A program made the translations under genes and the position numbers. Positions 8,848-64,000 of a stretch of DNA of 64,000 nt are shown piece by piece. Source of the stretch: an uncultured Ignavibacteriales bacterium (GTDB taxonomy: Bacteria; Bacteroidota; Ignavibacteria; Ignavibacteriales; Ignavibacteriaceae); the NCBI GenBank assembly GCA_963731745.1, contig CAVSWT010000032.1, forward strand, positions 35,369 through 99,368. Direction: 5' to 3'. The notes under the pieces were generated by a model, which was not told the DNA's origin, ran no database searches, and was given only the letters and a program-made list of their open reading frames with translations. The stretch's first letter is position 1; each line of letters begins with the position of its first letter.

Positions 8848-10101
8848 ATGAAAAAAGTATTATTCATAACATATTTTTGGCCGCCTTCCGGCAAGGCATC
8901 TGTTCACTGGCCTTTAAATATGATAAAATATTTACCTGAATTTGATTGTGATCCATCTGTATTAACTGTCGAAATGGACAATTTTTCTCATCCAGATGAA
9001 AGCCTCTTAAAAGAAATCAACCAAAATTTAAAAGTAAAAAAGTCTAAATCATCTGAACCCTTTAATCTTTATAGAAGATTTATTGGGAAAAAAAAGGACG
9101 AACCATTAATTGCATCAGAGACAATTTCTTTAGTAAATAAAAAATTCAGTCATCGGTTATCAATCTGGATAAGGATGAATTTATTTATCCCGGATGCACG
9201 AATAGGTTGGTATTTTTCAGCAATTAAAGAAGGAAAAAAATTCTTAAATGGTTACAAGCATGACGCAATCATTACTATAGGCCCTCCCCACTCTGCTCAT
9301 TTAATCGGGAAAAAATTAAGTAAGATTTTTAAAATTCCCCATGTCCCTGTATTTATTGATCCCTGGACAAATATAATTTACTATAAAGATTTTAAGAGAA
9401 GTAAATTAACTTTAAAAATAGATAATTACTTAGAAAAAAAAGTCTTAGGAAATGCCGATAAAGTTGTTTTTGTAACCAAAACAATGAAGAAGGATTATGA
9501 TGAAAAATACCCTAATATTAAAACTAAATCTCACGTACTTTATTGGGGTTATAATGAGGAAAAGTTTATAAAAAAAGAAAAAACTTTTTTTGGCGACGAA
9601 AAGATAATCCTACATGCGGGGAATATTTTTGATTATCAAAATCCAAAAAAATTTTGGGAACAAATAAAATTAGAAATACAAAAAGGTAACAATCTTAAGT
9701 TAAGATTTATAGGAACGGTTAGTCCTGAGATTAAACAATCGATACATATGGCTGGTTTGGATGATGTTACTAATTATTTGGGATTTCTACTATATGATCA
9801 ATTGATCGATGAACTGTTGAATGCTTCTTATTTATTAGTTTGTGCTACTGAACCTCGACATGTTCCTGGTAAAATATTTGAATATTTAAGAACCGGCAAT
9901 CCAATTATAGCTTTTGGAGATGACAATAAAGAAGTAGAACAAATCTTAAGGGAATCAAATGCAGGAATGATTTTCAAATACTCGGATGATGCCCATGAAT
10001 TTTTTATAACTGCTAAAAATTTCAAAACAGATTTAGATTTTGTGAAGCAATTTGATAGAAAAAATATAGCAAAAGAATTAAGTGAAATATTAAAGAGTTA
10101 A
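8848..10101 (+). CDS. Glycosyltransferase (GT-B fold, GT4-like)
   Basis: 417 aa. N-terminal KKVLFITYFWPPSGKAS and C-terminal EPRHVPGKIFEYLRTGNPIIAFG are typical of a GT-B C-terminal domain (E-x7-E-like region). Confidence 0.65.
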   Translation: MKKVLFITYFWPPSGKASVHWPLNMIKYLPEFDCDPSVLTVEMDNFSHPDESLLKEINQNLKVKKSKSSEPFNLYRRFIGKKKDEPLIASETISLVNKKFSHRLSIWIRMNLFIPDARIGWYFSAIKEGKKFLNGYKHDAIITIGPPHSAHLIGKKLSKIFKIPHVPVFIDPWTNIIYYKDFKRSKLTLKIDNYLEKKVLGNADKVVFVTKTMKKDYDEKYPNIKTKSHVLYWGYNEEKFIKKEKTFFGDEKIILHAGNIFDYQNPKKFWEQIKLEIQKGNNLKLRFIGTVSPEIKQSIHMAGLDDVTNYLGFLLYDQLIDELLNASYLLVCATEPRHVPGKIFEYLRTGNPIIAFGDDNKEVEQILRESNAGMIFKYSDDAHEFFITAKNFKTDLDFVKQFDRKNIAKELSEILKS

Positions 10102-57256: not shown

Positions 57257-57585
57257 ATGAGAACGATAATTCTAATAACAATATCAAATATTTTTATGAA
57301 CATTGCATGGTACGGCCATTTAAAATTTAAAAGTGCCCGCTTTGGATTGTAATCTTAATTAGTTGGGGAATTGCATTTTTCGAATATATATTTCAAGTTC
57401 CTGCGAATAGAATTGGCTATGGGGAATTTAATGCTGCGCAACTAAAAACTATTCAAGAAGTTATTACTTTAATTATTTTTAGTATTTTTTCAATATTTTA
57501 TTTGAATGAACAATTCCGGTGGAACTACGCCGTAGGATTCTTATTTATTGTATTAGCTGTATTTTTTATTTTTTACAAATGGTAG
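57257..57585 (+). pseudogene. DUF486 / DMT-superfamily small membrane protein with a 1-nt frameshift
   Basis: Frame 1 reads MRTIILITISNIFMNIAWYGHLKFKSARFGL* with its stop at 57350-57352. The next frame continues PLWIVILISWGIAFFEYIFQVPANRIGYGEFNAAQLKTIQEVITLIIF...FYKW*. Total span is 329 nt (not a multiple of 3). The shift falls in the A/T run TTTAAAATTTAAAAGTG. Confidence 0.6.
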
Positions 57586-57672: not shown

Positions 57673-57759
57673 GGAGAGTTGGCAGAGTGGTTGAATGCGG
57701 CGGTCTTGAAAACCGTTAAGGATGCAAGTCCTTCCGGGGTTCGAATCCCTGACTCTCCG
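57673..57759 (+). tRNA. tRNA-Ser (anticodon UGA)
   Basis: Cloverleaf folded by hand. Acceptor stem GGAGAGT/ACTCTCC plus discriminator G. Anticodon stem GCGGT/ACCGT with loop CTTGAAA. Long variable arm. T-arm CGGGG-TTCGAAT-CCCTG. Confidence 0.9.
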
Positions 57760-57962
57760 CGACTAAAAAAAGACTCAAAATACAACATGCAAATTGTGTT
57801 TTTGAGCCTTTTTCGTATAGTCTCGTCTCTCAGATACACTCAAATACCCCCTTTTAAAACTAGGTTTGGAGACTTTTTGGAGACCTTTTTAATATCGTAC
57901 TTTTATATATTATGACAATTATAAACTGACTAGGTAAAAAATCTTTTATTTAATATTTACTA

Positions 57963-59045
57963 TTATGGAAGTAAATTCTTTAAGCTACTTACCTCTTGAT
58001 GAAGCAGTTCAGCCTTGTGGTGAGCATATATTTCAGTTTGAACAACAGACCAGTGTCCTAATAATTCTTTAACAGAATGAATAGGAACTCCATTCTGCAC
58101 GAGCATTGATGCAAAAGTATGTCTGAACTTATGCAGGTAGGCGTTCGTATTTATACCTGCTGCTTTTGCAACTTTTTTACAAACTGTAAGCAGATTTCTT
58201 TCTCGCAATTTTTTTCCAGATGGTGAACAAAATGGAAATTCAAATGCATTCGGTTTTTTATGTTCTTCAAGCAATAATTCATAAAGCAGATTATGCATTG
58301 GTATATTTCTTTCAGAATTAAATGATTTGGTCTTAAAATTTTCACTTGATCGTATATGGATCAATCGATTTTTGAAATCAATGTCATCCCAGGTTAAATT
58401 AGCCAATTCCCCAAACCTTGCGCCGGTAAACAATAATCCTAGAAACGCTTTTCTATAAGCCGAGTTCATCTGCTGCTGAAAAAATAATTTAATCTCTTCT
58501 GGAGAATAATAATCGGGTTTTTTCTTATCCACCTTTAAGTTTTTGATATGCATCATTGGACTTTGTTTGATATGTCCTTTAATAACTTCCTGATTAAATA
58601 CTGCCTTAACAGTTTGAATAAAGAAATTGATGGTTTTTGGTTTAGGCATTGCCATTTTTGAATTGTTTTTACCTCGTTCTGGTTTTTCACGAACAAGTTC
58701 ATTATAAAGCTTTGTAGCATGATCTGGGGTGAACTCATCAACATAAGTTACATTAAATACTTTTGCAACTAATTTCATTTGAGTTATAACATATTTATTT
58801 TTTTTAATTGAGGCAGGACGCAAATGTATTTTACTTGCAAGAAAATCATCAAGCGCTTGATTCATTGGATATCTTGCGGTTAACAGTTTTGCTGAAATTA
58901 GTTTCTCATCATATTTGGATTTTTCATTAGCACCATCGAATGCCTTTGCTTCAGCTTTAGTTCGAAATGTTTTTTGAATCCTGTTCCCATATTTATCTCG
59001 GGTGTCTACTTGGAATTTTCCGTTGGGTTTAGTTTTAATTGCCAT
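57963..59045 (-). CDS. Tyrosine recombinase / phage-type integrase
   Basis: N-terminal SAM-like core-binding domain. Catalytic residues in context: GARFGEL (Arg), HKFRHTFAS (H-x-x-R) and LLGHWSVVQTEIYAH (His..Tyr). Confidence 0.9.
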   Translation of the reverse strand: MAIKTKPNGKFQVDTRDKYGNRIQKTFRTKAEAKAFDGANEKSKYDEKLISAKLLTARYPMNQALDDFLASKIHLRPASIKKNKYVITQMKLVAKVFNVTYVDEFTPDHATKLYNELVREKPERGKNNSKMAMPKPKTINFFIQTVKAVFNQEVIKGHIKQSPMMHIKNLKVDKKKPDYYSPEEIKLFFQQQMNSAYRKAFLGLLFTGARFGELANLTWDDIDFKNRLIHIRSSENFKTKSFNSERNIPMHNLLYELLLEEHKKPNAFEFPFCSPSGKKLRERNLLTVCKKVAKAAGINTNAYLHKFRHTFASMLVQNGVPIHSVKELLGHWSVVQTEIYAHHKAELLHQEVSSLKNLLP

Positions 59046-59372
59046 TTAGGTTACTCCTTCTATTGTTAATCTTGCAATTTCTGTTAAATGAATTTTTGGT
59101 TTGTCTCCCAAATTGATTGTTCTAATTGATCCGGATTTTATTCGGCGACGAATGAACTCCTCCCCTACTCCAAGTATTTTTGCTGTTTCATTTGCCGTAA
59201 ATAATATTTTATCAGGGTGGTTATGAACCAGTATTTGAATGGTAGTCTTTAAATTCTCAGCATCGTTAACATTAGACAAATTTTCATTTGCCGGACAAAT
59301 AATTTGAGTCCCGTCCTTTGCAAGTAAAGTTTTTGTAGAACTTAAATGCGATATTTCTATTAACGATGCCAT
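59046..59372 (-). CDS. Excisionase-like / MerR-type HTH DNA-binding protein
   Basis: LFTANETAKILGVGEEFIRRRIKSGSIRTINLG is an HTH_17-like pattern. Its stop abuts the integrase start. Confidence 0.55.
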   Translation of the reverse strand: MASLIEISHLSSTKTLLAKDGTQIICPANENLSNVNDAENLKTTIQILVHNHPDKILFTANETAKILGVGEEFIRRRIKSGSIRTINLGDKPKIHLTEIARLTIEGVT

Positions 59373-59403
59373 AGCTTATTATAATTATCTTATACCTTTT
59401 TCA

Positions 59404-59436
59404 AAATAAAAGCCGCTGAACTTTCAGCGGCATTTT
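59404..59436 (-). terminator. Rho-independent terminator
   Basis: On the minus strand it reads aaaatGCCGCTGAAagTTCAGCGGCttttatttt. It lies 25 nt downstream of the 59461 stop and separates the orphan-gene operon from xis-int. Confidence 0.65.
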
Positions 59437-59460
59437 ATGAAATTATTTAAGTCTATTCAT

Positions 59461-60090
59461 TTAATCTTCGTCATTACTATCTTGAATGGTATTTTCATCC
59501 TCAATGCTATCCTCCAAGTTTTCATCAACTTCAGGATCGGCATTTCTAGTATTAGAATCATTAAAATATTTGTCATCTTCGTACTCAATTAGATGTAAAA
59601 TTTTAACTGCTAAAGGAGTTAACATTTCATAAATTCTAAGAACCACTTGTACAAATGTAAATTCTTCAACTTCAAATTTGTAATAATAATTAGTATCAAA
59701 ATAAAATTTGTATTCACCATTCTTTATAAAAGATAAATTGAGTAAATCCGCCATTCCTTTACTTTGTTTATAGACAAAGTTTCTGCTTTTATATAAACTG
59801 TTGATTATACCGTAGTTATCATTATGATCATAAATAGTATACAAAAATTCTACTTCATACTTTTTATTACCTTTAAATTTTACCTTCACATTAAATCTTT
59901 TTGGAACTTCTTGTGGTCCAATTGGCAATTCAAATTCAATTGTCTCATTAACATTCATTTTATAGGCAACTACTTTTAAGGTTGCTTCTGCGATTTCATC
60001 CTTTTTGAATGTACTGACTTCAGGATTTGTGGTGTCGCCATCGTCTGTTTGAGAATTATTTGTTACTTCTTTGTTTAATATATTTTCCAT
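59461..60090 (-). CDS. Hypothetical protein with acidic disordered termini
   Basis: 209 aa. Beta-rich core flanked by a D/E/T-rich N-terminus and a C-terminus reading DPEVDENLEDSIEDENTIQDSNDED. I recognise no motif. Confidence 0.5.
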   Translation of the reverse strand: MENILNKEVTNNSQTDDGDTTNPEVSTFKKDEIAEATLKVVAYKMNVNETIEFELPIGPQEVPKRFNVKVKFKGNKKYEVEFLYTIYDHNDNYGIINSLYKSRNFVYKQSKGMADLLNLSFIKNGEYKFYFDTNYYYKFEVEEFTFVQVVLRIYEMLTPLAVKILHLIEYEDDKYFNDSNTRNADPEVDENLEDSIEDENTIQDSNDED

Positions 60091-60144
60091 AACTTTTCCT
60101 TTAAATATTAGGACTGGATAAATCCAGCCCCGGTTAATGTTTAG

Positions 60145-60810
60145 TTATTTATTTTTCTCCCAGCCAAAAGTTTCTCTGATTGATCTGTAGATCTGAGTTT
60201 TCACTTGCGGATATTTATTCAATAATGAATAAGTATCTTTAAGCTCGTTTCTTAGGATCACATTCAACTGACTATTAAAGTCTTTCCCATTAATCATTGC
60301 GACGTCCTTTAACATTGCAATGCGATGATCTTTTTTCTCTTTCAACTTTCCCAGCTTAGCTAGTATATCTTTTTGGAATCCTTCAGCATTCTTCTTTATT
60401 TCTCTCTTTAAAGCAATTTGAGAATTGATAGTTTTCATTCTCCCCTTAGCAGCCCGTGAATTAGTTGTACATGCGCTGCTATACTTTTTACCCCAACTAT
60501 TCAACGCAAGTTTAGTTTTCTTTTGTTGAAGTTTGGTTAGAGTAAGCTTAGCTTTAAATGCTTTGACTTCGGGGCTTGTAAGATTTTTGATGGTAGGATC
60601 TTCTCCTTCCTTTTCGGAAGGAATTTCGATTTGTTTAGAGCTAATGATTTTCTCCAAAACTATTATTGAATCAGAGAGTTCATAATTTTGATTGAGATGG
60701 TATGAATAACTCTTCTCAATTCCATTGAATCTTTTAGGAGATAATGTTCTGTAATTATTATTATCTCCTTTCGGATCAGCTAACTTTATTTTTGGCATCT
60801 TTGCCTCCAA
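60145..60810 (-). CDS. Hypothetical lysine-rich helical protein
   Basis: 221 aa with a strong GGAGG RBS. Central K-rich helices. I recognise no motif. Confidence 0.5.
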   Translation of the reverse strand: MEAKMPKIKLADPKGDNNNYRTLSPKRFNGIEKSYSYHLNQNYELSDSIIVLEKIISSKQIEIPSEKEGEDPTIKNLTSPEVKAFKAKLTLTKLQQKKTKLALNSWGKKYSSACTTNSRAAKGRMKTINSQIALKREIKKNAEGFQKDILAKLGKLKEKKDHRIAMLKDVAMINGKDFNSQLNVILRNELKDTYSLLNKYPQVKTQIYRSIRETFGWEKNK

Positions 60811-60865
60811 ATTGATTTAACTTCTGTTATTTAGATTGAAGTTATTTTTAACTTCGACACAATGA

Positions 60866-60882
60866 GGCAATAGATATACCGC
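60866..60882 (-). promoter_or_regulatory. Candidate sigma-54 (-24/-12) promoter
   Basis: The minus strand reads tgcGGTATatctaTTGCc. GG (60880-60879) and GC (60868-60867) sit at exact consensus spacing. It lies about 57 nt upstream of the ATG at 60810. Confidence 0.4.
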
Positions 60883-60929
60883 AGAAATGATTTAAAATTT
60901 TTAGTTTTGTAACTTATTTTTGGAATTGT

Positions 60930-60957
60930 ACTTGAAGTATTTCAAGTAAACTTGAAG
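60930..60957. promoter_or_regulatory. Candidate enhancer: inverted repeat plus a third half-site
   Basis: ACTTGAA-gtat-TTCAAGT occupies 60930-60947, followed by aa-ACTTGAAG (60950-60957). It lies about 50-75 bp upstream of the -24 element and just after the stop of the EBP gene. Confidence 0.35.
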
Positions 60958-60979
60958 ATGTTAGAGTTGGCGCAAATTA

Positions 60980-62866
60980 TCAGAGGTTTAATTTCTTTTT
61001 GATCTCTCCATATTTATTATAAGCTTTGTTAAGTTTTGATTTACTGAACTGTGTTCCGTCCATGCCAACAATAACCGATGCCGATTCTTTTTTTAGAGTT
61101 TTGTTCCAATGCATATTGAAGTCATCTAAGTATAATTTCGCGATTATTGGTTCAACAAAATTATCAAGAAATTTTCCGTCTTTATCCGGCGACCAGTTAT
61201 TTAAAAATAATAGTAGTAATTCATTTAATCTTTCAAAATCTTCTTCATGATATATCGGCGTGTTCTCAATTGGTTCCTTTTTAATTTGCTCAACTTTAAT
61301 TCTAGTTTGATTTTCCGACAGACAATTAAAATATAAAATTTTCAAATACTGATTTAGCTGTCTAATATTCCCCGGCCAGTTTAGAGATTGCAAGTATTCT
61401 ACAGCGACCTCATCAATAGTGATATATCGATCTCTCTTTCGATTCAATTCCGACAGAAAAGAGTCAATCATTATTCTTATGTCTTCTGATCTTTCACGCA
61501 GTGCCGGAATCTTTATTATTCTTCCCGTGATTCTATAATAAAGATCGTCTTCAAATTCCCCCTCTTTAAATAGTTTTTTTAAATCCTTATTTGAACCAAA
61601 AATAAGCCTTACATTAGCTTGAGTTGATTTGCCTTCACCTAAAACTTCAAATTTCTTTGTACCTATAAAAGTAATTAATCCATCACGCGTTTCCTTAGTT
61701 GTTCTGTCAATCTCATCAAGAAATAAAGTACCTCCTTCAGCTCGTTTTATTTTCCCGTCATAATCTTTTATTGCTCCAGTGAAAGCTCCTTTTTTCCAGC
61801 CGAATAATTTTTGATCTAGTTTATCACTGGACAAATTACCACAATTTTGTTCTTCATAATTTTTATTATGTCGATCGCTTTCATTATGAATTATATTAGC
61901 CAACCATGATTTTCCAACACCGGTTTCACCTAAAAGCAAAATAGGAATATCGTCTTCATTTATTACTGAAAGAACGGAGCGCAATTGTTGCTTATAATTA
62001 TTATCGTTTGTTAATACTTTCTTACTTAATGATTCTAACTGCTCATCGATGGTTTTTGTTGGACTCAAAATTTTTTCTTCTGGTTGATTTAATCTGATAA
62101 CTGTCTTTTCGAATAAATTTTGTTCTTGAATGGTATCGAATAAAAATGAAAATAAAGGTTTTAGTTCTGAAGTATTATATATTGAAATCCAATATATTAG
62201 CTGGGAGACAATTAAATAAAAATAGATTTTTAATTGTTCAGTATTATTTGAATCAGTGAGAATAATTTTAAATAAATTGTTTTTACTTTCTTGTTCATAA
62301 ATAGTTATCACTACCTTTCTCAATGCAACCAACAATTTATCTATCTTATTTTCATTACCTTCGGAATTATCAAAGATAATATATATTGGTGTATCGTTAT
62401 CCTTTATACCTTGGAAAAAATTTCCCGGTGGGAAATTCTTAAACATGTTAGCATTAATTCCCTCATCTTTCAAAATATTAGGAATGGTTGTTGAATTTAT
62501 TAAGTAAATGAATGATTGAAAATTGTTCGTATCTTTATTGTTGATTATACTGATTTGTTCAAAAGCTTTAATAAAACTTTCATCTAATTTTTTTTTACCT
62601 TCTTTCAGATTTATTTTAACTTGTGTGGATTGCTCATTGTCCCCACTCGATGTAAATGACCTTAAATTATCTGCCTTAAATTCTTTGTCATTGTTGACCG
62701 TTTCAAATATTGAATCAAGCGCTTTGTTTTTGAGCTGGTTTAATTCATCAAAAACTTGTCTTTCCTCAATTGACGATATATTGAATGACTTCTTTAATTC
62801 AGTTTCAACCTCTTGAATTAGATCAAAATATCTACCTTCAGATAGTAGTTTTTGAATTTTTTCCAT
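60980..62866 (-). CDS. Sigma-54 enhancer-binding-protein-type AAA+ ATPase with an uncharacterised ~300-aa N-terminal domain
   Basis: Walker A LLGETGVGKS, intact sigma-54 contact loop FGWKKGAFTGA, Walker B TLFLDEID, LYYRI and WPGNIRQL. The C-terminal end SKSKLNKAYNKYGEI looks like a degenerate Fis-type HTH. There is no receiver, PAS or GAF pattern in residues 1-300. Confidence 0.8.
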   Translation of the reverse strand: MEKIQKLLSEGRYFDLIQEVETELKKSFNISSIEERQVFDELNQLKNKALDSIFETVNNDKEFKADNLRSFTSSGDNEQSTQVKINLKEGKKKLDESFIKAFEQISIINNKDTNNFQSFIYLINSTTIPNILKDEGINANMFKNFPPGNFFQGIKDNDTPIYIIFDNSEGNENKIDKLLVALRKVVITIYEQESKNNLFKIILTDSNNTEQLKIYFYLIVSQLIYWISIYNTSELKPLFSFLFDTIQEQNLFEKTVIRLNQPEEKILSPTKTIDEQLESLSKKVLTNDNNYKQQLRSVLSVINEDDIPILLLGETGVGKSWLANIIHNESDRHNKNYEEQNCGNLSSDKLDQKLFGWKKGAFTGAIKDYDGKIKRAEGGTLFLDEIDRTTKETRDGLITFIGTKKFEVLGEGKSTQANVRLIFGSNKDLKKLFKEGEFEDDLYYRITGRIIKIPALRERSEDIRIMIDSFLSELNRKRDRYITIDEVAVEYLQSLNWPGNIRQLNQYLKILYFNCLSENQTRIKVEQIKKEPIENTPIYHEEDFERLNELLLLFLNNWSPDKDGKFLDNFVEPIIAKLYLDDFNMHWNKTLKKESASVIVGMDGTQFSKSKLNKAYNKYGEIKKKLNL

Positions 62867-63117
62867 ATAAGTCTATGTGTTTTAGTTAATAAATTGGTTA
62901 ACAGCTTTGAAGATTCATTGAATTTTTGCAAGGGTGCTTAAATATTGATATAAAAGTTTAATTTTATTTGTAAAAATTCTCAAAAATAAAATAAGGTATA
63001 CGAATTAATTAGTCGATTATCATAGAAAACTGATAAAAAAATCTCAATTAATTAAGTAGAATTACACAATTAATCATTTTTTATTTTATTCAACTATTGT
63101 TAAAGCTTTATTTTTCA

Positions 63118-64000
63118 TTAAGTTATAAGCAAATCTCTTTCAATTAGCATAAAGCTAGCCCAATAAAAAGGATTAGGGTACATTTGCTTAAGAATTAATT
63201 GTGCTTCTCTAAATGACTCAAATTTATTATCATTGATTAACCATTTAGAATAAAATTCTGTTATAAATTCTTTAGAAATTTTGTCATCAATTTCCCACAG
63301 ACTGATAATAATAGATTTTGCTCCAGCCTTGTAAAAAGCTCTTTGTAAACTTAAATAATCTCCAGATTCTAGTTCAAAACCTAAACCCGATTGACATACA
63401 CTTAATACCACCAGTTCGCAACTTTGCAGATTCATACTTCTAATTTCGTCGGGTGTTACAACTCCATTAAAATTGATATATTCTTTTCCGTCGATGTCCA
63501 CAGAACATCCGGACAGTAATATTCCAGACATTGTATATGAATCATCTATCTTTTCAATTTGTTTTAAATTGGGTAAGAAATATCCATGCGTTGCTACATG
63601 CAAAATTGTAGGAGAATTAACATCCATAAAATTATTTTTTGAAGCATCATCGTGGATATATAATTGCACTTTCCAATTATGTCCGTTCAATAATGAAGCG
63701 ACTTCATTTACTTCATTCTTGCTTTCGGGTAATGGTTTGATTTCATAATCATTTAATTCATATACAGAATTGTATTCATTTGGAATTTTATATCCACTTT
63801 CTAAACTAACTGCTCTGTAGGCTGGGGATCCAAATAAACATGCAGTTTTTTCTAAATTATTATTTGGGATAATTCTCATGTTTATCAAATTGTTTGTATA
63901 TCTGATTTTTTTATTTAATATTAAATACTCGCCACCAGAAGACAATAATGAATCGAAATTTATAAATCTTAATGCTCCATCTGAAGATAAAAAGATTTCA
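63118..64000 (-). CDS. CHAT-domain (caspase-like) protease, C-terminal part; N-terminus lies outside the window
   Basis: The His/Cys dyad is in context: ILHVATHGYF and LVVLSVCQSGLG. By hand translation the frame stays open upstream of the track's TTG at 63945 through to position 64000 (..EIFLSSDGALRFINFDSLLSSGGEY..). Confidence 0.8.
   Translation of the reverse strand, partial: EIFLSSDGALRFINFDSLLSSGGEYLILNKKIRYTNNLINMRIIPNNNLEKTACLFGSPAYRAVSLESGYKIPNEYNSVYELNDYEIKPLPESKNEVNEVASLLNGHNWKVQLYIHDDASKNNFMDVNSPTILHVATHGYFLPNLKQIEKIDDSYTMSGILLSGCSVDIDGKEYINFNGVVTPDEIRSMNLQSCELVVLSVCQSGLGFELESGDYLSLQRAFYKAGAKSIIISLWEIDDKISKEFITEFYSKWLINDNKFESFREAQLILKQMYPNPFYWASFMLIERDLLIT

Follow-up and report, generated by a model that had tools for sequence, protein, structure and literature searches.

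NBU2, a mobilizable transposon (MTn), uses the 3' ends of two tRNA-Ser genes and is under 15 kb in size, and RteB, a regulator of CTnDOT, belongs to the NtrC class of enhancer-binding proteins (EBPs). Mobilizable transposons of the NBU1/NBU2 type in Bacteroides are associated with tRNA genes and with XerC/D-like integrases (PMC13597742), and in CTnDOT a regulatory cascade leads from RteA and RteB through RteC to the excision operon (PMC3809561). Here we describe a locus in a 64,000-nt stretch of DNA from an uncultured Ignavibacteriales bacterium (hereafter the window; contig C32, positions 35369-99368, in a genome of 32 contigs and 5.1 Mb) that is very probably the left part of a genomic island of at least 52 kb, integrated site-specifically into the 3' end of a tRNA-Ser(UGA) gene. 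Open reading frames (ORFs) were annotated by profile scans with Pfam, NCBIfam, PADLOC and PHROGs, and tRNA genes with ARAGORN and Rfam. The host genome is labelled G000, its relatives G001, G004, G006, G036, G040 and G045, related loci L0xx, and contigs C; contig labels given alone refer to the host.

The kind of element, a tRNA-integrated island with a tyrosine recombinase, is ordinary and well known, and some of its parts are unusual. As in the tRNA-targeting islands of the P4 or lambda type, an integrase (Int) and a recombination directionality factor (RDF) stand at a tRNA 3' end together with direct-repeat attL and attR sites, a regenerated tRNA, arm repeats and variable cargo. Unlike tRNA islands in general, the family to which this element belongs inserts only in tRNA-Ser genes, though in those of all four isoacceptors, has a strictly 11-bp-phased, element-specific arm pair, and carries a sigma-54 cassette beside xis-int. 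By analogy, the NBU2/MTn elements at tRNA-Ser are its closest named relatives in behaviour, since (taking NBU2 as it is commonly described) they share with it the phylum in GTDB terms, the tRNA-Ser 3' end as target, and the ability to use more than one tRNA-Ser gene. The islands differ from them in having no mob or relaxase gene that we found, in being larger (43 to 52+ kb), and in carrying both a primase of the archaeo-eukaryotic (AEP) type with a VirE helicase and the sigma-54 cassette. CTnDOT, from the same phylum, resembles the island in that an element-encoded activator would switch on a small regulator gene beside excision functions; however, the island EBP has a one-component sensor domain in place of a receiver domain and kinase, and tra genes are lacking. 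Neither the integrase family nor the EBP cassette as a backbone module of integrative elements was described in the searchable literature, where absence is weak evidence, and the present account offers a first anatomical description of a mobile-island family in the Ignavibacteriales, about whose mobile elements little has been written.

The initial annotation of the window had proposed an integrative element at the tRNA-Ser 3' end, marked by an integrase with an excisionase-like helix-turn-helix (HTH) gene directly upstream of it. All of these features were found, although the integrase ends 202 nt, and not 204, from the tRNA 3' end. The features at the left end of the island are as follows.

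57673..57760, plus strand: intact tRNA-Ser(UGA) gene, the integration target, on the attL side (ARAGORN; Rfam RF00005, 57.8 bits)
57743..57760, plus strand: attL copy of the 18-nt att core GAATCCCTGACTCTCCGC, found by exact-match search; the attR copy lies outside the window at C11:44638-44655
57772..57808, plus strand: hairpin and T-run directly after the tRNA, supplied by the element (read from the sequence)
57833..57850, plus strand: P' arm repeat pair GATACAC-TCAA-ATACCCC, with a similar pair in relatives
57867..57884, plus strand: P' arm tandem repeat TGGAGAC-TTTT-TGGAGAC in 11-bp phase, candidate arm-type Int/Xis binding sites
57963..59045, minus strand: tyrosine integrase, 360 aa (PF00589, 9e-30; phrog_1, 1e-62)
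59046..59372, minus strand: Xis-like HTH protein, 108 aa, putative RDF, abutting the integrase start

The catalytic residues R210, K238, H305, R308, H331 and Y340 are all present in the integrase, and most of them are invariant in a four-sequence alignment. The Xis-like protein matched HTH_17 (3.6e-5), TIGR01764 'excise' (1.5e-5) and phrog_66 excisionase (4.6e-5), with scores slightly under the curated cut-offs (24.4 against 27 bits and 25.3 against 28.8 bits), and in 13 of the 16 related loci int has a Xis homolog immediately before it. The locus combines a catalytic tyrosine recombinase with direct repeats at both ends and an accessory status, which are the marks of an integrative island.

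The direct repeat of the tRNA 3' end that the initial annotation had proposed to look for does exist. The 5.1-Mb genome contains exactly two copies of GAATCCCTGACTCTCCGC, the 18 nt with which tRNA-Ser(tga) ends; both have the same orientation, and for a random 18-mer 1.5e-4 copies would be expected. A second, closely related island (sibling B; the island that begins in the window is island A) occupies tRNA-Ser(GCU), and its core, the last 18 nt of tRNA-Ser(gct), likewise has one further genomic copy, at C6:6807-6824. Both extra copies stand in the orientation expected for attR, and both are preceded by homologous 3.46-kb modules (96.1% identity); the UGA-type core matches C11 and the GCU-type core matches C6. 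Because each core has a single extra copy and the modules next to these copies are homologous, we take island A to extend from window position 57743 to the end of C32, through an unassembled gap, and over C11:1-44655, at least 52 kb in all. The right boundary, which had been predicted to lie beyond the window, thus lies beyond the contig as well, and the window shows the left 6.3 kb of the island; C32 ends 1463 nt past the window, within the N-terminal part of a CHAT gene. A 153-bp match on C7, which came up as a candidate attR in a BLAST search of the tRNA and spacer against the genome, was rejected, as it is the attL arm of the sibling at tRNA-Ser(GCU).

The arm repeats support the same boundaries. 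The TGGAGAC pair of the P' arm is repeated on C11 at about -75/-64 relative to the attR core, and an element-specific arm pair was present on both arms wherever attR was located (islands A and B of G000, G036 and G045), the attR-side pair lying at -75/-64 from the core (-77/-66 in G045); none of the second core copies is part of a tRNA gene. Tandem 7-8-mers in 11-bp phase were found about +95 to +118 past the tRNA end in every family member, and their sequence is specific to the element, both copies changing together (TGGAGAC, TGGTACC, TGGCAAC, TGGACAC, TGGAAAG, TGGGCGG, TAGTCAC and TGTGAAAG). Such co-changing repeats look like the signature of arm-type sites for a recombinase or RDF that co-evolve with their protein, and this co-variation makes the family well suited to studies of how DNA recognition by integrases and RDFs diversifies. 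An ATACACC/ATACCCC-like pair occurs at the equivalent place in L043, L044, L045, L047 and L053. Hairpins equivalent to that at 57772..57808 follow the tRNA in related elements, and the one in island A likely serves as a replacement terminator for the tRNA.

From this arrangement of sites and genes we infer the following cycle. Int, guided by the arm sites, would recombine an attP core that mimics the T-arm/acceptor 3' strand of tRNA-Ser with the tRNA gene; crossover within the 18-nt core would regenerate an intact tRNA, to which the element would supply a new terminator. Xis would direct excision to a circle, which the primase-helicase encoded near the right end of the island would replicate.

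Related genomes were consistent with an accessory status of this DNA. In G001 the left flank is kept (about 80-82% DNA identity), and the tRNA is followed by genes for a major facilitator superfamily (MFS) transporter and secreted proteins, with no integrase; in G006 the left flank is kept as well (~80% DNA identity) and every backbone protein is missing at the locus. The gene order behind this tRNA is therefore not one that all relatives share, as would be the case for core genes. Additionally, C11:19001-41300 had zero orthologs in six same-genus genomes, and C11:1-19000 gave only scattered short matches in them, while the GH127 gene just beyond attR is conserved in G001 (80-92% at the amino acid level). 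Relatives thus have the site without the integrase and cargo, and the cargo on C11 is missing from the six same-genus genomes. As a separate observation, the genes for the MFS transporter and for type IX secretion system (T9SS) cargo that stand behind tRNA-Ser(tga) in G001:C30 stand behind tRNA-Ser(gga) in G000 (C29:66666-72083). The tRNA-Ser loci may have swapped flanks in the past, as would result if islands at different tRNA-Ser genes recombined.

The element belongs to a family. A search with an alignment of four integrases gathered 16 related loci (Int identity 36-57%), mostly in metagenome-assembled genomes (MAGs) of Ignavibacteriales or Melioribacteraceae; the exceptions were one MAG labelled Ectothiorhodospiraceae, two contigs of one Bacillota-labelled MAG (L046 and L057) and three MAGs with no label beyond Bacteroidetes. 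A convergent tRNA-Ser gene lies about 200 nt away in all 12 loci that have sequence past the int stop, with the anticodons tga, gct, gga and cga, so that target specificity is clean: tRNA-Ser genes only, of any isoacceptor. G000 itself has four tRNA-Ser genes, two of them occupied. Direct repeats of the tRNA 3' end measure 18 nt in G036, where attR is on another contig and none was found within 15 kb of the tRNA, and 25 nt in G045. The G045 element (L056; G045:C10:50599-93576) is complete on a single contig, with cores 42,960 nt apart, a GC content of 44-45% against 53% in the flank, and a DUF5659 and DUF5906 replication module near its right end; its cargo includes RHS, type I restriction-modification (HsdM), KAP NTPase, AAA_13/DUF4145 and PLD nuclease genes. 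Because this complete element is 43 kb long, 40-50 kb is a normal size for the family. The MAG that holds it is the one labelled Ectothiorhodospiraceae, yet the element has the lower GC content just given and encodes a protein with a T9SS C-terminal sorting domain, and either a cross-phylum transfer or a chimeric or mis-binned contig would account for this. For the same reason the Bacillota-labelled L046 and L057 seem to be Ignavibacteria contigs that were mis-binned.

Sibling B is 97.7% identical to island A over all of the 7.7 kb that remain on C32. It extends from C7:12763 down to C7:1 and, after a gap, over C6:1-6824, at least 19.5 kb. In G004 and G006, tRNA-Ser(gct) is followed by orthologs (85-88% aa identity) of the genes at C6:17.7-29.3 kb, in the right order and orientation, and by this synteny C7 and C6 were neighbours before the insertion; in a joined-flank search for an empty site of sibling B the left flank alone was conserved at the DNA level, the synteny being shown at the protein level. 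About 10.9 kb (C6:6825-17700) separate attR of sibling B from the first syntenic gene, compared with 2.1 kb in G004. This extra, strain-specific DNA holds an S8-type ORF of 1187 aa, and 380 nt of it resemble both C11:8668-9382 and G006:C7:246.4 kb; it may stem from a small repeat family or from mobile DNA that arrived earlier and now lies in tandem.

Direct comparison of the siblings showed that their divergence is uneven. The Xis-like protein and the products of the two genes next to it, orf209 and orf221, are 100% identical in A and B, and Int is 98.9% identical, all four being intact in B; the EBP, CHAT and primase proteins are each about 96% identical, with CHAT intact in B (801 aa) and the other two frameshifted. 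A 1.75-kb block with zero mismatches (window ~58993-60742 against ~C7:9766-11515) covers xis, orf209 and orf221, whereas its flanks diverge by 1-8%. This mismatch-free block amid diverged flanks argues for recent gene conversion between siblings at different tRNA-Ser genes. The two islands of this genome thus recombine with each other, and such pairs may also cause the chromosome to rearrange between the tRNA-Ser genes that they occupy.

Several observations weigh against the reading of this locus as a simple integrative island that spans two contigs. The comparison with empty sites that the initial annotation had called for was borne out in part: G001 and G006 have no int or cargo at the tRNA, but none of 40 relatives had the two flanks side by side in a joined-flank search for an empty tRNA-Ser(UGA) site, and in G001 the tRNA is followed by other genes, with the GH127 right flank at a contig end. 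No contig-end overlaps were found between C32 and C11 or between C7 and C6, and the island A CHAT gene lacks at least its first 20 codons in the assembly. The physical continuity of C32 and C11 is therefore one that we infer from the sequence; it is supported indirectly by the matching core types and by a DUF932 gene at the start of C11 (C11:81-660), which has a homolog (60-65% aa identity) inside the complete G045 element. A candidate bridge over the gap, G006:C7:235-247 kb, was rejected, as it holds only scattered fragments near a tRNA-Asn gene, without int, EBP or CHAT. Immediately right of the attR cores, where the native trailers of two different tRNA genes should stand, A and B agree at 24 of 30 positions (C11:44656-44685 and C6:6825-6854), a likeness not expected under a simple attP x attB model; the native trailers of relatives are unrelated to these 30 nt, except for the GCU trailer of G006, which is similar. 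In the family at large, five of nine members checked had no exact second core copy, and L053 has decayed. Sibling B carries single-base frameshifts in the EBP gene (C7:7640-9525, giving 449 + 163 aa, through a 1-nt deletion at the equivalent of window position 61564) and in the primase gene (C6:3733-6055, 728 + 59 aa), so that, barring errors of assembly, neither the switch nor replication is likely to work any longer in this copy; together with the decay of L053, the frameshifts suggest that some copies are degenerating. Furthermore, no relaxase, type IV secretion system (T4SS) or other conjugation, terminase or capsid genes were seen in the scanned ORFs of A, B and the complete G045 element (with an assembly gap in A and B, and small ORFs partly scanned). 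The initial annotation had likewise seen no phage structural or conjugation genes, and by these scans, subject to the gap in A, the island does not qualify as an integrative conjugative element.

The strongest alternative is a composite or rearranged locus, in which only ~10-20 kb would be mobile and the 41 kb on C11 would be other accessory DNA, brought there by a second island or by recombination between siblings. Short repeats at C11:8400-8755 and 9141-9396 recur outside attR of sibling B (C6:6952-7350) and near the tRNA-Asn gene of G006, the placement of the G001 tRNA-Ser(tga) genes behind tRNA-Ser(gga) in G000 hints at swapping of flanks, and the mismatch-free block shows that siblings recombine. 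However, each tRNA has a single extra core copy and no internal degenerate att site was found, the 43-kb element of G045 is bounded by one core pair, and the gene at the start of C11, DUF932, is a family gene; we therefore regard a composite origin as unlikely and retain the single island of at least 52 kb.

The part of island A between xis and the CHAT gene has the layout of a sigma-54 cassette, with the following features.

59403..59431, minus strand: intrinsic-terminator-like hairpin GCCGCTGAAAGTTCAGCGGC and T-run after orf209 (read from the sequence)
59461..60090, minus strand: orf209, acidic orphan of 209 aa, second gene of the sigma-54 unit; no match in Pfam, NCBIfam, PADLOC or PHROGs
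60145..60810, minus strand: orf221, basic coiled-coil protein of 221 aa, first gene behind the promoter; no family match
60866..60881, minus strand: predicted sigma-54 promoter CGGTATATCTATTGCC (GG-N10-GC with TTGC), ending 55 nt before the orf221 start
60930..60957, minus strand: putative EBP binding sites (upstream activating sequence, UAS) CTTCAAGT-TT-ACTTGAA-ATA-CTTCAAGT, a half-site cluster upstream of the promoter
60980..62866, minus strand: sigma-54 enhancer-binding AAA+ activator (EBP), 628 aa (Sigma54_activat PF00158, 4e-46)
63118..64000, minus strand: TPR-CHAT protease, C-terminal 293 aa, the gene continuing to the contig end (CHAT PF12770, 5e-45)

The EBP has the motifs of a sigma-54 activator (Walker A GETGVGKS at 313, GAFTGA at 360 and Walker B LFLDEID at 381), the genome encodes rpoN (C3:42798-43271), and the cassette contains a predicted -24/-12 promoter. 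A strict sigma-54 consensus scan of the elements returned nothing, and the matches to a looser weight matrix all lay inside coding regions; the candidate CGGTATATCTATTGCC came from direct reading of the 169-nt spacer between EBP and orf221, in which it is the sole GG-N10-GC. The clustered CTTCAAGT pair occurs at three places in G000, two of them being the sibling cassettes.

The layout of the cassette recurs in four elements including that of the window, and the EBPs of L045, L053 and L051 are 35-37% identical. In L045 the promoter TGGTCTTTTATTTGCA stands 54 nt before the start of an orf221 homolog (21% identity), in L053 the promoter CGGCTTCTTCTTTGCA stands 57 nt before an orf221 homolog (26% identity), and in L051 (G040) the promoter TGGTATATCTGTTGCA stands 57 nt before a gene for a 198-aa basic coiled-coil protein, so that the distance from promoter to start is 54-57 nt in all four cassettes. 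Each of these three loci has its own element-specific palindromes upstream of the promoter. On the other side of the EBP the genes vary from element to element (TPR-CHAT, SNF2 helicase, or pentapeptide/beta-lactamase/GNAT), and a CHAT homolog occurs in L047 without an EBP. Because the layout recurs while the neighbours of the EBP vary, we consider the cassette a conserved, self-contained module of part of the family, and CHAT its cargo. The initial annotation had regarded every gene to the right of the integrase as orphan or accessory; CHAT is indeed variable cargo, whereas the EBP with its promoter and target gene makes up the conserved cassette.

The EBP has a rare N-terminal sensor domain (~290 aa). 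A word-based search of 5.8 billion proteins returned only its own copy and that of the sibling, and a HMMER pass over 1.84 billion representative proteins gave six matches, three of which are EBPs of the same architecture (620-625 aa); a search for related loci with the EBP alone gave no match. The AlphaFold2 (AF2) model, built on a seven-sequence alignment and of moderate confidence (pLDDT 69), consists of a helical hairpin and an alpha/beta domain, for which the best folds were macrodomains and the macro-like N-domain of M17 peptidases (E ~6e-5, target-normalised TM ~0.62). The best named families for the whole protein were PADLOC RtcR_PspF2 (CARF-AAA-HTH; 1.7e-69) and NCBIfam RtcR (1e-64). 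RtcR, the activator of the rtcBA RNA repair operon, is likewise a one-component EBP with an N-terminal alpha/beta ligand-type domain; however, no rtcA or rtcB gene is nearby, and the island N-domain is macro-like by model and not CARF. Since the modelled fold is not CARF, the resemblance to RtcR appears to lie mainly in the AAA+ core. A CARF sensor, suggested by the PADLOC match, was thus unsupported by the modelled fold, and membership of the RtcR family was rejected on the score (219 bits against a 650-bit cut-off), the non-CARF fold and the lack of rtc genes nearby.

The two genes behind the promoter are orphans. The confident AF2 model of orf221 (pLDDT 85) combines a helical bundle with a long coiled-coil hairpin that is tipped by a beta-hairpin; the fold search gave no significant PDB match for it, and the word-based search only the protein's own copy and that of the sibling. 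It is not a homolog of RteC, because it is a coiled coil without a winged helix; an RteC-like winged-helix regulator had been considered and was rejected on this model and on the absence of a Pfam RteC match. For orf209 no relatives were detected outside sibling B.

We tentatively propose, with somewhat less than even confidence, that the cassette gives the element a switch of its own which responds to a signal and serves its induction or a response that it encodes; the output would be the orf221/orf209 pair acting on excision and replication or on a stress or infection response. Two observations tell against it: no match pointed to a function for orf221 or orf209, and the L051 cassette is inverted relative to xis-int, so that read-through into xis-int cannot be the cassette's general mode of action. 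A more specific version, in which the macrodomain-like sensor would detect an ADP-ribose-type or related nucleotide signal (from phage attack or NAD+ turnover) and fire the local promoter of orf221/orf209, triggering excision and replication or an abortive-infection-like response, is quite unlikely; if true, the tRNA-Ser island family would couple mobility or defence to sigma-54. The cassette makes a compact, testable circuit of a single activator, a single enhancer and a single promoter, with two orphan proteins.

At the right end of the island lies a replication module that consists of a DUF5659 protein and a 774-aa primase-helicase. The N-terminal part of the latter resembles AEP primases, and its C-terminal 400 aa resemble phage primase-helicase domains of the VirE/D5 type (PHROG primase, 8.5e-20; phrog_28855, 1.4e-69; phage 'virE' and 'primase small subunit'). 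DUF5659 with a primase or DUF5906 protein was also found in G036 and G045. The cargo of island A on C11 comprises DUF932 (split), DUF2130 and SRAP genes and a ~25-kb LacI-controlled cluster of ADP-ribosylglycohydrolases, an ABC transporter and SusC/D-like genes, together with a serine hydrolase and NHL and LVIVD propeller proteins, one with a T9SS sorting domain. The initial annotation had expected cargo of the conflict or defence type; that of island A is mostly the metabolic cluster, and the expectation holds in part at the level of the family, with the conflict genes of G045. Islands of this family thus move large metabolic or defence cargo.

Such a backbone raises the possibility of a phage satellite of the kind of phage-inducible chromosomal islands (PICIs) or P4, which would depend on a helper, with the EBP sensing infection and orf221/orf209 interfering with the helper or hijacking it. 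PICI/P4-like satellites share with the island a backbone of int and primase-helicase (pri-rep) with phage-like primase domains, and the order int, regulator, primase-helicase is a satellite hallmark. Each half of the primase has matches among phage proteins and in PHROG families, the coiled-coil protein orf221 lacks cellular homologs, and the EBP sensor, by its model, resembles ADP-ribose-binding macro folds. However, phage satellites measure roughly 5-18 kb, far less than island A (at least 52 kb) and the G045 element (43 kb), which are 3-5 times larger; no terS, capsid-redirecting or cos/pac features and no packaging or capsid-remodelling genes were seen in Pfam and PHROG scans (a viral collection was not scanned), and the cargo is mainly metabolic. 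We consider a satellite quite unlikely.

About equally improbable is an integrative mobilizable element of the NBU2/MTn type, excised by Int and Xis and transferred in trans by a conjugative element. Siblings A and B do occupy two tRNA-Ser genes in a host of the same GTDB phylum, and the ties of NBU1/NBU2-type elements to tRNA genes and XerC/D-like integrases (PMC13597742) fit this picture; however, the scanned ORFs of A, B, G036 and G045 held no relaxase, mob or oriT genes (the assembly gap remains), plasmid-borne integrase matches were at most 27.5% identical, and the primase is of the AEP/VirE type.

CHAT proteases act in conflict systems, and the CHAT protein of the island has the His/Cys dyad motifs HVATHG and SVCQSG. 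Its full-length sibling copy (801 aa; PF12770, 3e-46) has TPR_12 and TPR_8 in the N-terminal half. A type III-E Craspase (Csx29) was considered and rejected: there was no cas-like domain among the scanned neighbours and no PADLOC match for the CHAT protein (a CRISPR array was not specifically searched for). Very unlikely, finally, is a two-gene defence system in which the EBP would turn on the protease or its partners upon infection: the genes are adjacent on the same strand and the best PADLOC match of the EBP is RtcR_PspF2, but CHAT lies upstream of the EBP, the sole sigma-54 promoter faces away toward orf221, no sigma-54 (-24/-12) promoter was found upstream of CHAT in the 940-nt spacer of sibling B, the EBPs of L045, L053 and L051 have no CHAT neighbour while the L047 CHAT homolog has no EBP, and PADLOC did not match CHAT. 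The cassette is not a regulator of CHAT.

Two further observations concern the cargo on C11 and the left flank. The catabolic cluster on C11 is unusual and strain-specific; it includes four tandem ADP-ribosylglycohydrolase paralogs (C11:15887-20255; L006/L007) beside an ABC transporter of the sugar type, and its SusC-like gene is seemingly split into several ORFs. To the left of the tRNA, the gene for a DUF486/DMT-like membrane protein (window 57257-57585) encodes an intact protein of 110 aa in G001 and has no ORF of 50 aa or more in G000, which is consistent with a 1-nt frameshift, either in a real pseudogene or as an assembly error.

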